Shown: piece by piece, positions 1,883-17,780 of the stretch | Numbering within the stretch: position 1 is the first letter of the stretch | Layout of the letters: each line of letters starts with the position of its first letter | Assembly: GCA_043803685.1 (NCBI GenBank) | Contig: JAZDJU010000014.1 | Span: 1-36,036, forward strand | Origin: Candidatus Omnitrophota bacterium | Lineage (GTDB): Bacteria > Omnitrophota > Omnitrophia > Omnitrophales > Aquincolibacteriaceae | Reading direction: 5' to 3' | DNA: 36,036 nucleotides | The notes under the pieces: generated by a model | Database searches by the model: none | The model's input: only the letters and a program-made list of their open reading frames with translations | Told to the model about the DNA's origin: nothing | Translations under genes and position numbers: made by a program

Positions 1883-2429
1883 GACAGTCCTTCATATTCT
1901 GACGGGGAGTATCGCTGCCTACAAGGCCCCCGGAATGATCAAGAAGTTGAAGGCTCACGGCGCGAGGGTGGTGTGTGTCATGACGCATTGCGCCAAGGAA
2001 TTCGTGACGCCGACTGTCCTTCGGACTGTCAGTGGAGAGCGCGTGTATTCGGAGATGTTCCCGCAGGACGCTCCATTTGGAGTGTTGCACACATCCCTTG
2101 CGGATCTCCCGCATCTTGTGCTGGTTTCTCCTGCGACTGCAAATTTCATCGCGAAGATGGCGACGGGCATTTCCGATGATCTCGCCAGTTGTCTGGTGCT
2201 CGCGACGCGAAAACCGGTCTTGGTCGCTCCGGCCATGAACGACAACATGTTGACGCATCCTGTTACCCAAAAGAATATCGCCCAGCTCAAGGCTCTCGGG
2301 TATCATTTCGCGGACCCGATCGAGGGGGATTTAGCGTGTGATCGTGTCGGGGTTGGACATATTGCTTCTGAAGACTCCATCCTGGCTTGCGTTACGAAAA
2401 TTCTTTCTAAAAGTTCCTGCCGCAGGTAA
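1842..2429 (+). CDS. coaC: phosphopantothenoylcysteine decarboxylase (CoaC half of CoaBC, flavoprotein)
   Basis: TGSIAAYKA, PATANFIAK, APAMNDNM and GDLAC..G.G motifs. Probable ATG at 1842 overlaps the end of rpoZ. Confidence 0.9.
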   Translation: MLKPKPRARKLSGKTVLHILTGSIAAYKAPGMIKKLKAHGARVVCVMTHCAKEFVTPTVLRTVSGERVYSEMFPQDAPFGVLHTSLADLPHLVLVSPATANFIAKMATGISDDLASCLVLATRKPVLVAPAMNDNMLTHPVTQKNIAQLKALGYHFADPIEGDLACDRVGVGHIASEDSILACVTKILSKSSCRR

Positions 2430-2436
2430 TATCGAA

Positions 2437-3090
2437 GTGGCGCCTCGCCCTCCTAAGATCCTCATCACCGCAGGCCCCACACGGGAAATGATCGATCCTG
2501 TACGTTTTCTCTCCAATCTCTCGACAGGCGAAATGGGGTACGCGCTCGCGCGCGCCGCTGTTTCCAGGGGGTATCACGTGAGTCTGGTCAGTGGGCCGAC
2601 CCATCTTCGTCCCCCCAAGGGTGTGATGTTCTATAGCGTCACCTCGGCCGTGGAAATGAAAAAAGTTTGCATGGAACTTTTTCCCGATCACGACGGTCTC
2701 ATTATGACAGCGGCTGTATGCGACTTTATGCCAGCCTCGACAGGTCGCCACAAGATCCCGAGTGCGAAGGGCCTGACGCTTAAACTTAAGCGGACGCCGG
2801 ATATTCTGGCAACGCTCGCGAAACGGAAGCGCAGACGGATCGTGATCGGTTTTTGTCTTGAGACCCGGGATCTGATACCCCGAGCGACTGAGAAGCTTGT
2901 CAGAAAGAAGTTGGACGGGATCGTGGCGAACTTTTACGGTTCAGGGTGCATCCCTTTTGGAAATAGGCGTGTGAATGTGCGCTTGATCGATTCTGTGGGA
3001 GCTGTCCAAACGATCGAGGATCGGTCCAAGGCGCAAGTGGCACGAGCGATCCTGGCTTGGATGACGAGTATGCATCAGAGGGGGCGTTAG
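2437..3090 (+). CDS. coaB: phosphopantothenate--cysteine ligase (CoaB half of CoaBC)
   Basis: ILITAGPTREMIDPVRFLSNLSTGEMG, AAVCDF, TPDIL, GFCLET and KKLDGIVAN motifs. Probable GTG start at 2437, 7 nt after the coaC stop. Confidence 0.9.
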   Translation: MAPRPPKILITAGPTREMIDPVRFLSNLSTGEMGYALARAAVSRGYHVSLVSGPTHLRPPKGVMFYSVTSAVEMKKVCMELFPDHDGLIMTAAVCDFMPASTGRHKIPSAKGLTLKLKRTPDILATLAKRKRRRIVIGFCLETRDLIPRATEKLVRKKLDGIVANFYGSGCIPFGNRRVNVRLIDSVGAVQTIEDRSKAQVARAILAWMTSMHQRGR

Positions 3091-6483: not shown

Positions 6484-7074
6484 ATGATCAAGAAGATATC
6501 GTTACTGGCGATCGGATTCCTTATCTGTTTCCCACTGGCCGCTTTCGCGGCTGTCCTTGTTGAGGGGCGTACGGGCACATTGATCATTACGAACCCTGAC
6601 GGCACTACTATTACGGCTGGGCCCAATGACCCTCTCCCTGTGATCCAGGACGGTGCTTCCGTTAAAGTAATGGATGGTGTCGCACGCATCTCTACGACGG
6701 GTACTACGATCCTCCAGGTTTTAGCCGGGACTTTAACATTTCAGCTTGCGCCAGGGACGATCCTGAACGTCATGTTTGAGCCGACGGGTGCGGTGATCGC
6801 CGAAGCTATGACGGGGCAAATGACGACAGTCATTGCCGACGGCAGGACCGCAACGATGGATGCGGGGGATCAGATCCGTTTGACGCCGGACGGTGGATTT
6901 GAGGCGTTCAAGGGTGAAATAATCCTGACCGATAGCACAGGGAAGACCGAAATATTGGGTGCCGGCATCAAGATCGAGGGTTACACACCTCCGGAGACTC
7001 CTGACGTACTAACCGTCGATACGCAAGTACAGAGTGAAGAAACTTCCCGAGATATCAGTCCGGTTCAATCCTGA
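6484..7074 (+). CDS. secreted beta-rich (FecR-like) protein with conserved C-terminal EGYTPPE...SEETSRDISPVQS tail
   Basis: GGGAG RBS; signal peptide ending AFA-A; Thr/Gly-rich repeated beta motif (EGRTGTLIITNPDGTT / EAMTGQMTTVIADGRT / EAFKGEIILTDSTGKT); tail shared with 26500-27282. Confidence 0.8.
   Translation: MIKKISLLAIGFLICFPLAAFAAVLVEGRTGTLIITNPDGTTITAGPNDPLPVIQDGASVKVMDGVARISTTGTTILQVLAGTLTFQLAPGTILNVMFEPTGAVIAEAMTGQMTTVIADGRTATMDAGDQIRLTPDGGFEAFKGEIILTDSTGKTEILGAGIKIEGYTPPETPDVLTVDTQVQSEETSRDISPVQS
6976..7074 (+). repeat. dispersed protein-level repeat, copy 1 (32-aa C-terminal tail)
   Basis: EGYTPPETPDVLTVDTQVQSEETSRDISPVQS*, 26/32 aa identical to 27184-27282. Confidence 0.95.
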
Positions 7075-10126: not shown

Positions 10127-11578
10127 ATGCTTTTGACGCTTGCCGAGGGGCTCCTGTTCTTGGCGCTGATCGCGGCGCCTCTCCTCTACGGTTCTGTCCA
10201 CTTCCTGTCTTTGATCTTTCTTGCTTTCCTCGGTGTGCTGACGTTCAACATGGTGGGGATGGTCCGGCCTGAGTCTTTCGCTCGAGCCTTACGTACGCCT
10301 TGGACTTGGCTAGGGATCGCGATCGGGGCTGTTATCCTGACGCAGTTCATTCCGATGCCCGTGGAATGGATTCGCAAGATATCGCCTGAGACTTATCGTT
10401 TTTACGAACTCTATTTCCCGGGAGGTGTGAAGCCAGGAAGCTATTTCACATTGTCCGTTTGTCCCGGTGAAACCGTTCGAGGGCTGATCCAGTTCCTGAC
10501 TTACGGTCTTTTTTTTCTAAGCGTCTGGATGTGTCTTGCTTCCGTTCCTGCCGCGCCGGCGGCAGAGGTTCATCCGGTCAGTTGGAAAAAATCAGAATTT
10601 TTAAAACTGGGTTGCCTGACAGGGATCCTAGCGCTTCTTTTTCACAGCATCTACGACTTCAATCTGCACATTTCGGCTAATGGAATCTACTTCGTCACGC
10701 TTTTGGCGCTTGGGGCCGGCGCCTCGGACAGGGTTTACGATCACGCGTTCTTCCGGCGAGTGGTCGATTTCTTCATCACCTTTGGCTTCCTTGTCGCGCT
10801 TTTCGCGATCCTTCAAAAGTTCAGCCACAACGGGCGCATCTTCTGGGTTGGTATGAAGGCCTCTAAACCCGTTGGACCTTATTTTAATTATGACCATTAC
10901 GCTGGATTTATGGAGATGTGCAGTGCCGTGGCGGTTGGTAAGGTCGTTGCGAGTTTTTTTCACACCTCTTTTGCTCATTGCAAAGGGCTTGCCCAAAAGA
11001 TCTTCTGGTTTTCGACCCGTGAGGCTCACCAGGCACTGCGTTGTCTTTTAATGTCCGCAGTTATGATCGCGACGATCTTCATGTCGACTTCGCGCGGAGG
11101 GATCATGAGTTTTGCTCTTAGCCAGATCTTTTTTTTCTCGGTCTTTCTCTGGACGGCCGGTCGACAGCGAAAAGGCAAGAGATGGGCGGGGGTCGTGACG
11201 GCAGGGATGCTTTTTGTGGGCGTGATGGTCCTTTGGCTTGGGCCCGAGACTCTCTTAAAGAAAATCCATATGACTTCGGTCGAAAAGATCATCAAGATGG
11301 AAAGCTCAGATTCTATCCGCATCCATTTTTATAAAGGAACGCTTCTCGTGATCCGCGACTTCCCTGTTATTGGTACGGGGCTTGGAACTTTTGGTACTAA
11401 TTTTACTCGCTATCGTTCCTTTAAATATTTTGGAGGGCCAACCAATTATTTACGACGCACTCATAACGACTATCTTGAGCTTGTCTCCGAAACCGGGATC
11501 GCGGGAGTTCTTTTCCTTCTTGGTTTTCTGATTCTTTATTTGCGCGCCGTCATCCTTGTTGTGAGGAAGCTCGAATGA
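10127..11578 (+). CDS. O-antigen ligase / O-oligosaccharyltransferase family membrane protein (Wzy_C), apparently internally permuted
   Basis: GPYFNYDHYAGF, STSRGG, DFPVIGTGLGTF and THNDYLELVSETG motifs; multiple TM helices. Confidence 0.85.
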   Translation: MLLTLAEGLLFLALIAAPLLYGSVHFLSLIFLAFLGVLTFNMVGMVRPESFARALRTPWTWLGIAIGAVILTQFIPMPVEWIRKISPETYRFYELYFPGGVKPGSYFTLSVCPGETVRGLIQFLTYGLFFLSVWMCLASVPAAPAAEVHPVSWKKSEFLKLGCLTGILALLFHSIYDFNLHISANGIYFVTLLALGAGASDRVYDHAFFRRVVDFFITFGFLVALFAILQKFSHNGRIFWVGMKASKPVGPYFNYDHYAGFMEMCSAVAVGKVVASFFHTSFAHCKGLAQKIFWFSTREAHQALRCLLMSAVMIATIFMSTSRGGIMSFALSQIFFFSVFLWTAGRQRKGKRWAGVVTAGMLFVGVMVLWLGPETLLKKIHMTSVEKIIKMESSDSIRIHFYKGTLLVIRDFPVIGTGLGTFGTNFTRYRSFKYFGGPTNYLRRTHNDYLELVSETGIAGVLFLLGFLILYLRAVILVVRKLE

Positions 11579-12273
11579 GGACTTTTGTGATCGGTGATAT
11601 CCATGGTGCCTATAAGGCCCTCCTTCAGTGCTTTGCGCGGTCCGGGTTTGAACGCGAGAGGGATCATCTTATCGTTTTGGGCGATGTGTGCGACGTTTAT
11701 CCGGAAGTTCGCGAGTGTATGGACGAACTCATCGCGCTCAAACATTGCGATTTCATCATTGGGAATCATGATTTGTGGGCTCTCGATTGGGCGACCCGGG
11801 GATTAAAGCCTACAATGTGGCTCGAGCAGGGGGGCGAGGCGACGATACGTTCCTATGGAGGAGGCCCGGTGCTGGCTGCGCACGTGGATTTTCTCAACAA
11901 GGCGCACCCCTGGCTTGAGATCGATGGCCGTGCTTTTGTCCACGCGGGGTTCGATCCGGACCGTCCTTTGAAGGGGCAAAGTCTCAAAACCCTGGCTTGG
12001 GACCGCTGTCTTTTGCGCAGGGCTCTGGAGGACGGGGTATCCGGGCGCAGTCATCAGATCGGATGCTACAAGGAGATCTTTCTCGGCCACACTCCGATCG
12101 GGATCCTGCATGACTCGGTGCCTCAACACGTGTGCAATGTCTGGGCCATGGATACCGGAGCCGGTTGGTCGGGGCCTCTTACGATCATGGATGTGGACAC
12201 GAAAGAATTCTGGCAGTCCGATCCGACACCCTCTCTTTACGGTGTTAAAGGTCGGCAGAAAGGCGAGGGTTAA
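11575..12273 (+). CDS. calcineurin-like (PPP family) metallophosphoesterase / protein phosphatase
   Basis: GDIHG, GDVCD, GNHD, FVHAG, GHTP and DTGAG motifs; ATGA overlap with the upstream gene. Confidence 0.9.
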   Translation: MRTFVIGDIHGAYKALLQCFARSGFERERDHLIVLGDVCDVYPEVRECMDELIALKHCDFIIGNHDLWALDWATRGLKPTMWLEQGGEATIRSYGGGPVLAAHVDFLNKAHPWLEIDGRAFVHAGFDPDRPLKGQSLKTLAWDRCLLRRALEDGVSGRSHQIGCYKEIFLGHTPIGILHDSVPQHVCNVWAMDTGAGWSGPLTIMDVDTKEFWQSDPTPSLYGVKGRQKGEG

Positions 12274-16460: not shown

Positions 16461-17780
16461 GTGAGTGTTGTCTTGAAAAAGATGCCCAGGATTCTTGATG
16501 TCGGAAGCCAGGATGGCGCGGTTCGATCTCGCTCTTGCTACTGGAAAAGCCTGCTATTAGTCGTTTTGGCATTCCTTGTCGGATTCGCGAACGCTAAAGG
16601 CTATTTGCAGCTATTAGATTTACAGTTTTTATCGAGGCTGCTTACAGCCATGCTGGTCTTCATTCTTTTTCTTTCTAGCCTTACCTTGCTAAAATCAAAA
16701 GGAACGCCTTTAAAATACATTGTTCCTTTGTTTGTTCTTGTTCTTTCGAAATATGCTTGGTTGTACTTTGTAAATCCCGGACTCTTTTCTGTTTCCGGTC
16801 CGGAAGTTAATACGAATTTTGCGCAAGGCTATTATCTCTTCCACACTTCTTATCGTGGGGAGGTTTTTTATCTCCTCATAGGCTTCTTTTTATGTTGCGT
16901 TGTCGCGCGAGGGGCAAACTCTTTTCGCGAACTTAGATGGATTGTTGGCGCGTTGGTTCTAGGTAGCGGCATAGCCCCATTAATAGGTTTTTTCTTTTTC
17001 CACCAGATGGTTGGGTTTCGCGAGACGATGGTTGACGGCATTTTGTTTCCTGGAGGCTTTTGGAATTCTTCCGTTATTTCTTTTATTTCAGTGTTTTGGC
17101 TAGCGGTTGCAGTGATGCCGTACGCGTCAAAGCTGGGGTCTTGGATTTTAAAAATCTTTTTGTTTTTTATTACGATGGGAGCACTGGTTGGGCTATCGAG
17201 AGCTGCTCTTGTGTCAATGAGCATATCGTCAATGGTTTATCTCGTTATGGCAAGGGAAGGAAGGGCGAGGATTAAATTAACAATCTTTTTTCTCCTTATT
17301 ATTTTGATTTGCCTTCTCTTTTTCAGCAATGTTGTCGGTGATTTTCAGTCGAGATTTATTGAAAAGGCGACTCTTGCTGATGAATTAAGACTTCAAATCT
17401 GGATGGGGTATCTTTCAAATTTTTCGCAATACTGGATGTCAGGTATGGGGGAAGATGGGTATTTGGCCTTTTCAGCGACGCGGCAAGGTGCTCACTCTAT
17501 TATTTTAAGCTATTTAGTTCGTTTTGGTTTTTTGGGGGTAGTTTTTTTTCTTTGGTTGCTCTACGGCGTTTGGGTGTCAATTGTAAAGATACAAAAAGCA
17601 TTTCCTTCGAAAGCTATAGCAGCGATTTGTGCGTGGTTGACGGCCTATTTGTGTTTGGTCACCTATAACGAAACTGGCTTTGCTGAGATTGGTTTGTATA
17701 TGCCCTTGGGATTATTATTGGCTTGGGGAGAAATTGCATCCCGGTATGGACTGTGTTCCGAAACCTGCGGGGGGAGATAA
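16461..17780 (+). CDS. polysaccharide polymerase Wzy / O-antigen ligase-like membrane protein
   Basis: Very hydrophobic, about 10-12 TM helices, AT-rich; GLSRAA, RLQIW and GAHSIILSYLVRFGFLG Wzy_C-like motifs; lies among the GT genes. Confidence 0.75.
   Translation: MSVVLKKMPRILDVGSQDGAVRSRSCYWKSLLLVVLAFLVGFANAKGYLQLLDLQFLSRLLTAMLVFILFLSSLTLLKSKGTPLKYIVPLFVLVLSKYAWLYFVNPGLFSVSGPEVNTNFAQGYYLFHTSYRGEVFYLLIGFFLCCVVARGANSFRELRWIVGALVLGSGIAPLIGFFFFHQMVGFRETMVDGILFPGGFWNSSVISFISVFWLAVAVMPYASKLGSWILKIFLFFITMGALVGLSRAALVSMSISSMVYLVMAREGRARIKLTIFFLLIILICLLFFSNVVGDFQSRFIEKATLADELRLQIWMGYLSNFSQYWMSGMGEDGYLAFSATRQGAHSIILSYLVRFGFLGVVFFLWLLYGVWVSIVKIQKAFPSKAIAAICAWLTAYLCLVTYNETGFAEIGLYMPLGLLLAWGEIASRYGLCSETCGGR

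Follow-up and report, generated by a model that had tools for sequence, protein, structure and literature searches.

A conserved non-circular permutation of transmembrane helices in an O-antigen-ligase-family glycosyltransferase of Omnitrophota

In this work, we describe a membrane glycosyltransferase gene with a rearranged order of transmembrane (TM) helices, found in a 36,036-nucleotide stretch of DNA from a Candidatus Omnitrophota bacterium (contig JAZDJU010000014.1 of assembly GCA_043803685.1), hereafter called the window. The product belongs to the O-antigen ligase family, as its residues 309-465 match the Pfam Wzy_C domain (PF04932) with an E-value of 1e-19 and 71.2 bits, against a cut-off of 31.7; NCBIfam gave only sub-threshold matches for the 483-residue protein (IctB family, 34 bits, cut-off 366). 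As judged by profile matches, ordinary members of the family are built in the order A (TM1-4), B (TM5-10 with the catalytic loop) and C (TM11-12), while the window protein is ordered A-C-B. With a probability of roughly 80%, we consider it a functional 12-TM, WaaL-like glycosyltransferase, in which TM11-TM12, with the HS..DFNLH.PAN motif at the turn on their periplasmic side, have been transferred together to the short cytoplasmic loop that joins TM4 to TM5. Since the hairpin enters from the cytoplasm and returns to it, the topology of all other helices would be unchanged.

The rearrangement was identified with a profile of 422 positions, built from 50 colinear family members and searched against 43 full-length relatives of the window protein. 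The window protein itself is matched in three pieces: profile positions 7-101 on residues 9-133, positions 356-399, which correspond to the ordinary C-terminal hairpin, on residues 154-197 (independent E-value, i-Evalue, 8.6e-15), and positions 109-351 on residues 207-480 (i-Evalue 2.5e-67). The same succession of N-terminal block (about 5-105), hairpin (about 356-400) and core (about 110-351) is found in all 43 full-length relatives. Because the pieces 7-101 and 109-351 flank the insert, the segments on its two sides are contiguous in ordinary members; in the colinear relative P0053 they can be seen side by side by eye. The chain is not rotated as a whole, as it would be in a circular permutant: the block matching positions 7-101 is still N-terminal and only B and C are exchanged, so that the rearrangement is a non-circular permutation.

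Motif positions give the same picture. We refer informally to the HNDYL / HS..DFNL subfamily, a grouping defined here by its two motifs, both of which are carried by the window protein: HSIYDFNL at residue 173 and HNDYLELVSETG at residues 446-457. A regular-expression count was made on 120 homologues, listed of 619 from a word-indexed search. HS..DF lies 270-295 residues before HNDYL in P0001-P0052 (both motifs detected in 41 out of 52) and 57-61 residues after it in P0053-P0120 (both detected in 64 out of 68). These 120 sequences were pooled with the best 150 of 8,556 matches, at E-values up to 1e-3, from a HMMER scan of 1.84 billion representatives. The resulting 265 homologues include 60 full and 4 truncated permuted proteins, 197 colinear ones and 4 fragments which could not be classified. 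The hairpin consensus of the 60 permuted proteins, YLKLGCLTGVLSILFHSLYDFNLHIPANALYFTVLLALA, is almost identical to that of the 197 colinear proteins, YLRLGGLTGCVAILVHSLVDFNLHIPANALLFFVLAGLA. Across the 43 relatives, hairpin residues G162, H173, D177, F178, N185 and Y188 are invariant, and identity within the permuted clade is higher in the hairpin (61%) than in the core (48%). On these comparisons, the two helices inside the chain and the canonical TM11-12 hairpin are homologous, their likeness going beyond composition.

A preliminary description of this DNA, made from the letters alone, had already proposed that the C-terminal hairpin was relocated into the N-terminal third of the protein, and its testable points were borne out. 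Nucleotides 10598-10720 translate exactly into FLKLGCLTGILALLFHSIYDFNLHISANGIYFVTLLALGAG, residues 158-198, preceded by ASVPAAPAAEVHPVSWKKSE, and the chain ends, with RKLE and the stop codon, one helix (H458-482 in the structural model, TM10) beyond HNDYLELVSETG. The normal position of the two-helix motif, C-terminal and after HNDYL, and the normal adjacency of the flanking segments, both given there, agree with the motif distances and profile matches reported above, as does the proposed non-circular nature of the event; the alignment to homologues suggested there as a check placed residues 154-197 on the C-terminal positions of the family, out of order.

Permuted genes recur in the phylum. 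Among 400 other sampled genomes, 21 matches at E-values up to 1e-20 were found, 20 permuted (one of them split over two contigs) and 1 colinear; the permuted form occurs in several families, yet in only 1 of the 19 sampled genomes of the host genus. GTDB species representatives contributed 63 loci, 21 permuted, 34 colinear and 8 fragmentary or broken; this set overlaps that of the 400 genomes, and the two counts are not independent. The permuted species loci are titled Omnitrophota/Omnitrophica, Candidatus Omnitrophus magneticus or Candidatus Tantalella remota, and among the 21 species genomes with the permuted form, all that are clearly named are Omnitrophota. Five permuted loci are labelled as bins of "uncultured Planctomycetia/Planctomycetales", at least two of which (L037 and L046) are placed in Omnitrophota as genomes. 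One permuted homologue, at nt 2318-3991 of L046, is interrupted by a single in-frame TAG codon between profile positions 182 and 188, and may be a pseudogene, a sequencing error or a case of read-through. The nearest named colinear relatives belong to Thermodesulfobacteriota, Nitrospirota, KSB3 and Binatia. The host genome has five Wzy_C genes, and the other four align colinearly. By the sequences sampled, the permuted order is a fixed trait of an Omnitrophota-wide clade.

The structure of the window protein was predicted with AlphaFold2 (AF2) from a 43-row alignment, with a mean predicted local distance difference test (pLDDT) score of 83.8 and a predicted template-modelling score (pTM) of 0.88. 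Twelve TM helices are predicted: four precede the linker, H150-176 and H183-198 form the hairpin, and six follow, ending with H458-482. In the linker from TM4 to the hairpin, pLDDT drops to 65 over residues 141-150. Lysine and arginine abound in the loops assigned to the cytoplasm, including 138-157 (KK) and 199-210 (R, R), and the model fits a topology with both termini inside, where the hairpin would leave from the cytoplasm and return to it. The early cytoplasmic loop, to which the preliminary description assigned the hairpin, is thus recognizable as the short, K/R-rich TM4/TM5 loop, by the positive-inside pattern and the N-in topology of the family.

In structural comparison by VIA-align, the best match of the model is WaaL of Cupriavidus metallidurans (CmWaaL, 7tpg_B), with Z 13.5, a root-mean-square deviation (rmsd) of 5.2 and 319 aligned residues; model residues 1-483 fall on chain residues 6-350 of 403, and the last two helices of WaaL are left without a sequential partner. 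FtsW (Z 9.4) and RodA (Z 7.4) follow. Foldseek against the PDB also places 7tpg_B first, as a weak match (E 2.2e-3, template-modelling score 0.29). The predicted fold is therefore WaaL-like, with 12 TM helices, while the helix order departs from that of WaaL-type ligases, the hairpin being found between TM4 and TM5 and the chain ending after TM10. A control model of the colinear relative P0053 (pLDDT 89.5, pTM 0.91) aligns to residues 5-407 of the same WaaL chain with Z 25.7, rmsd 4.5 and 366 aligned residues.

The hairpin of the window protein (residues 146-205) was also docked, with custom alignments, on residues 1-428 of P0053, from which its own hairpin had been removed. The docking score was 0.78, as opposed to 0.01 for the best of three controls; this mark is reached by 116 out of 157 solved complexes and by 2 out of 215 mismatched pairs, counts which are only rough when custom alignments are used. 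Docking runs agree in at least 82% of contacts, with a partner pLDDT of at least 68. Confident contacts on the core involve residues 19-38, 146-158 (TM4), 161-174 (TM5), 214-236 (TM6), 282-298 (TM8), 390-397 (the HNDYL motif) and 414-422 (TM10). The halves of a split fold can pass docking through likeness to solved folds, such likeness being the question asked here. The model treats the relocated hairpin as canonical TM11-12, in a predicted site abutting TM4 and TM5, and the hairpin would occupy its ancestral position in space. As the site abuts these two helices, short new linkers (about 20 and 7 residues) should suffice to reach the old place. The model thus offers a simple structural reason for tolerance: the hairpin may be re-threaded from its neighbouring helices, TM4 and TM5.

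The reading frame is uninterrupted, as the preliminary description had noted in suggesting that the enzyme may be functional, and conservation extends to the catalytic residues. S322, R323, G325, R398, H446, D448 and Y449 are conserved at 90% or more in both the permuted and the colinear groups, and 38 columns, including R323, R398 and H446, are invariant in the 43 relatives. Core changes specific to the permuted clade are only 7, without obvious clustering at the rewired junctions. H173 and D177, located where the first hairpin helix reaches the periplasm, are also invariant. Profile alignment to 7tpg_B, the sole sequence match in the PDB (E 1.6e-6), places, by counting, R398 on R265 and H446 on H313 of CmWaaL, so that the conserved periplasmic histidine typical of WaaL-type ligases is found in the window protein and in all 43 relatives. 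R323, invariant within the STSRGG motif, presumably corresponds to CmWaaL R191, which lies just outside the aligned range, as the alignment begins at chain residue 195.

In PMC10920833, Arg-191 and Arg-265 of CmWaaL are described as binders of the undecaprenyl-diphosphate phosphates and His-313 as the proposed acceptor activator, while related polymerase families are said to carry an aspartate or glutamate at the position of His-313. The histidine found there in the window protein, H446, would thus point to a ligase-type (GT121-like) enzyme rather than a Wzy polymerase. By analogy with WaaL, the enzyme would use a glycan linked to undecaprenyl diphosphate and bound through R323 and R398, and would transfer the glycan to an acceptor activated by H446. 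It may act in a Wzx/Wzy-type exopolysaccharide pathway, together with the Wzc-like protein encoded next to it.

The origin of the permuted form was analyzed by trees restricted to 241 core columns; as neither the hairpin nor the N-terminal block enters them, the permutation itself does not shape the tree. In a FastTree tree of 257 rows, the permuted label requires a single change, the 60 permuted rows falling on one side of a branch with support 99. A quick IQ-TREE run (LG+C20, 94 rows), on every second permuted row (30) and 64 colinear rows picked by tree distance, likewise requires one change (Shimodaira-Hasegawa-like approximate likelihood ratio test, SH-aLRT, 98). The aligned sequences fit a single origin of the permuted proteins. 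The permuted state is taken as derived, because the colinear order is widespread, being found in distant WaaL, in the four host paralogues and in many phyla. Two routes can be envisaged: an internal duplication of TM5-12 may have produced an A-B-C-B-C protein, which then shed its first B and its last C; alternatively, C may have been copied into the TM4/TM5 loop, with subsequent truncation after TM10. Over the 197 canonical proteins, hairpin and core identity are not correlated (rho 0.08), so that a source within the gene and a source in a paralogue are indistinguishable; the hairpin is too short and too conserved for its donor to be traced.

Other explanations were weighed against a relocated, functional hairpin. 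We give next to no likelihood to an assembly chimera or local misassembly, by which the apparent rearrangement would have been produced. The source genome is indeed a 133-contig draft, with an estimated contamination of 6.64%; still, the relatives sharing the order, 43 out of 43, differ widely (33-80% identity) and come from ENA, JGI, NCBI and Logan assemblies, and among the 21 species genomes with the same order some carry it on contigs longer than 180 kb. As many independent sequences share the A-C-B order, misassembly can be excluded; the comparison with sister genomes, recommended in the preliminary description, thus returned dozens of concordant cases. It is extremely improbable, too, that the permuted gene is a remnant in decay or without catalytic activity. 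The in-frame TAG of one relative (L019, identical to L046) could be taken in this sense, but frames are intact across the whole range of identities, the invariant columns include the three key residues, and synteny with Wzc is conserved. An unrelated insertion with a convergent motif, accompanied by simple loss of the true C-terminal hairpin, is very improbable. Hydrophobic helices align readily, and in some proteins the hairpin match extends across the permuted TM4 to profile positions 333-355 (TM10), so that part of the alignment is compositional. Nevertheless, domain i-Evalues range from 1e-13 to 5e-19 over about 45 residues, the permuted and canonical consensus sequences differ little over about 40 positions, among them G, H, S, D, F, N, H, P, A and N, and no colinear member, among pooled homologues and species loci, has an insert at profile positions 107-111.

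Two further alternatives accept the homology of the hairpin. A-C-B might be the ancestral order of the subfamily and the common A-B-C order derived from it, and unrooted trees show no polarity; we regard this as highly unlikely, since A-B-C is common to distant WaaL (7TPG, where the control alignment spans the whole chain), to the four paralogues of the host genome and to 197 out of 261 classifiable homologues from many phyla, with the permuted form seen in Omnitrophota only. The hairpin might, otherwise, have been relocated and now pack elsewhere, or have taken a new role, such as contact with the Wzc-like partner, in a fold no longer equivalent to that of WaaL. The difference in Z between permuted and control models and the strict linkage to Wzc, with occasional fusion, could be read in this way. 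Against it, the polar motif of the hairpin is conserved as in canonical proteins, docking places it against TM4, TM5, TM6, TM10 and the HNDYL motif of the canonical core with a score far from that of the controls, and clade-specific core positions are few, which makes this alternative unlikely.

Some observations weigh against the proposed reading of the gene and of its origin. The Z-score of the permuted model is about half of that of the control, a larger drop than would be expected from losing 47 aligned residues. Profile comparison of the hairpin with the C-terminus of WaaL (chain residues 367-404) gives no significant match (i-Evalue 5.2e3), and WaaL itself lacks the HS..DF motif. Docking gives model confidence, not structure. 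The trees lack a root, and similarity to the window protein governed the choice of their rows. None of the 265 pooled homologues contains two hairpins, which leaves the duplication intermediate without a representative and either route of origin without support, and no vestigial second hairpin was detected, in any frame, in 43 permuted loci (other matches at E of at least 2.2). Finally, the presence of a second Wzy_C gene in the locus makes any division of labour between polymerase and ligase a guess.

The features of the permuted gene and of the surrounding locus are collected in Table 1.

Table 1. Permuted gene, its segments and neighbouring genes in the window
Feature	Position (nt)	Strand	Basis or remarks
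Permuted Wzy_C / O-antigen-ligase-family membrane glycosyltransferase gene	10127..11578	+	483 aa plus stop; list of open reading frames (ORFs)
N-terminal block, aa 1-137, TM1-TM4 and periplasmic loop 73-112	10127..10537	+	Colinear with N-terminus of ordinary members; profile 7-101 = aa 9-133
N-block helices H2-19, H26-46, H58-72, H113-137	within 10127..10537	+	AF2 model
Linker ASVPAAPAAEVHPVSWKKSE, aa 138-157, new TM4-to-hairpin connection, predicted cytoplasmic	10538..10597	+	Without counterpart in the canonical profile
Relocated TM hairpin FLKLGCLTGILALLFHSIYDFNLHISANGIYFVTLLALGAG, aa 158-198, homologous to canonical TM11-TM12	10598..10720	+	Profile 356-399 = aa 154-197
Hairpin motif HS..DFNLH.(P/S)AN; H173 = nt 10643-10645, D177 = nt 10655-10657	within 10598..10720	+	
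Return linker aa 199-205, ASDRVYD, followed by HAFFRR; hairpin to TM5, predicted cytoplasmic	10721..10741	+	AF2 model and sequence
Core aa 206-483, TM5-TM9, periplasmic catalytic loop 372-457 and TM10	10742..11575	+	Profile 109-351 = aa 207-480
Core residues R323, R398, H446	11093-11095, 11318-11320, 11462-11464	+	
Wzc-like polysaccharide co-polymerase / tyrosine autokinase, 564 aa	8424..10118	+	Pfam Wzz, GNVR, AAA_31; TIGR01007 180 bits, cut-off 108
Calcineurin-like phosphoesterase, weakly PrpA/B-like	11575..12273	+	Pfam/NCBIfam; start overlaps ligase stop (ATGA)
Second Wzy_C gene, 439 aa, E 6e-11	16461-17780	+	Colinear, without HS..DF; between pyruvyl transferase and GT2 genes
196-aa ORF between Wza-like exporter and BBP2 porin	6484-7074	+	No Pfam or NCBIfam match
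Locus genes around the ligase: Wza-like exporter, BBP2 porin, Wzc-like autokinase, phosphoesterase, epimerase			Wza-like exporter: TIGR03027 above cut-off
Further locus genes: Wzx-like flippase, pyruvyl transferase, second Wzy_C, three GT2 glycosyltransferases, initiating sugar transferase, CapD-like dehydratase			

By Pfam and NCBIfam annotation, the locus is a Wzx/Wzy-type exopolysaccharide cluster, in which the second Wzy_C gene, located in the sugar-specific part, is probably the actual repeat-unit polymerase. The Wzc-like gene and the permuted gene are separate in the window, 8 nt apart. A Wzc-like gene is found upstream of the permuted gene in 19 out of 21 species-representative loci, directly so in most; the Wzc match is partial in L038, L042 and L045, and about 1.5 kb distant in L038 and L045. 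In some cases, the two are fused. In the 1022-residue P0121, residues 2-553 are the Wzc part and residues 573-1022 the ligase part; residues 568-1017 map in the order N, hairpin, core, as in the permuted clade, and the Wzc half is 52% identical to the product of the gene upstream in the window. A second fusion, in L013 (identical to L037), is a 1031-residue open frame at nt 821-3913 of L037.

The link is looser in colinear relatives, where a Wzz-like N-terminal part is found downstream in 12 of 42 loci and the kinase part upstream in 1. In Acidobacteriota and related loci (L054, L057, L058, L063, L065-L068, L075, L078, L083 and L087), the Wzz-like chain-length-determinant gene lies about 1.5-2.5 kb downstream of the colinear gene. 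The whole subfamily, beyond the permuted clade, seems tied to co-polymerases. It is tempting to speculate that the transposition of the hairpin is an adaptive rewiring, tied to an obligate partnership with the Wzc-like co-polymerase; a chain ending after TM10, with TM11-12 inserted early, would create an Omnitrophota-specific Wzc-ligase module, with an assembly order or an interface to the Wzc ring unlike those of all described Wzx/Wzy systems; we regard this proposal as tentative and rather doubtful. If true, the module would sometimes be a single protein of 1020-1030 residues, and the clade would prove, in nature, that the helices of a GT-C-like enzyme can be re-threaded in a non-circular way.

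The phosphoesterase gene is found directly downstream also in close kin (L007-L010) and in L029-L032 and L035, and its product might be the phosphatase that acts with the adjacent tyrosine autokinase, substituting for a Wzb-type enzyme. Elsewhere in the window, CoaBC is encoded not by one bifunctional gene but by two ORFs in different frames (1815-2429 and 2338-3090, both on the + strand), for the decarboxylase and ligase halves.

Natural non-circular permutations of polytopic membrane proteins are, to our knowledge, rarely documented. Full-text literature searches, whose coverage mostly leaves out subscription journals, found no description of a permuted O-antigen ligase, Wzy or SEDS-like glycosyltransferase, and the word stem "permut" does not occur in PMC10920833. 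The case is a conserved non-circular permutation of a known enzyme family, probably functional, and would indicate that the order of helices in such enzymes can change without destroying them. The clade provides a natural test of whether the folding of a 12-TM enzyme depends on the order in which its helices are inserted during translation, and the permutation may serve as a marker by which a Wzc-coupled exopolysaccharide module of Omnitrophota can be recognized. The clade is also a warning for annotation and structure searches: sequential aligners lose half of the score (Z 13.5 vs 25.7), and colinear alignments misplace the hairpin. The understanding of the family chemistry is unchanged; the main interest lies in membrane-protein evolution and folding, and in the annotation of Omnitrophota surface-polysaccharide systems.

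Among known systems, the best structural match is C. metallidurans WaaL (7TPG/7TPJ; described as GT121 in PMC10920833). The two proteins share 12 TM helices, a large periplasmic loop before the third-last canonical helix, and the alignment of H446 and R398 with His-313 and Arg-265. They differ in segment order, A-C-B in the window protein and A-B-C in WaaL, in the HS..DFNL motif, present in the former and not in the latter, and in genomic context, the window gene being located beside Wzc in an exopolysaccharide export locus rather than in a lipopolysaccharide core locus; their identity is only 14-16%.

Much closer in sequence are the colinear "O-antigen ligase family proteins" of the same subfamily, such as P0053 and P0133, the latter from a Thermodesulfobacteriota metagenome-assembled genome, which carry the HNDYL...HS..DFNLHIPAN pair and are in many cases fused to C-terminal tetratricopeptide repeats. 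Identity to them is about 31-35% in the core and about 43-58% in the hairpin; the same residues are conserved, and their genes often lie near those of chain-length determinants. In these proteins, however, the hairpin is C-terminal and the TM4/TM5 loop has only about 3-10 residues, and their named members come from other phyla. A likeness of a different kind is found in the cpCone clade of the Lipocone superfamily, which, according to PMC12419801, is likewise defined by a change in helix order with retention of active-site residues, and for which a duplication intermediate has been proposed. The cpCone proteins belong to a different superfamily and, as described there, result from a true circular permutation of a 4-helix domain, whereas the rearrangement in the window protein is non-circular and leaves the N-terminal third in place.

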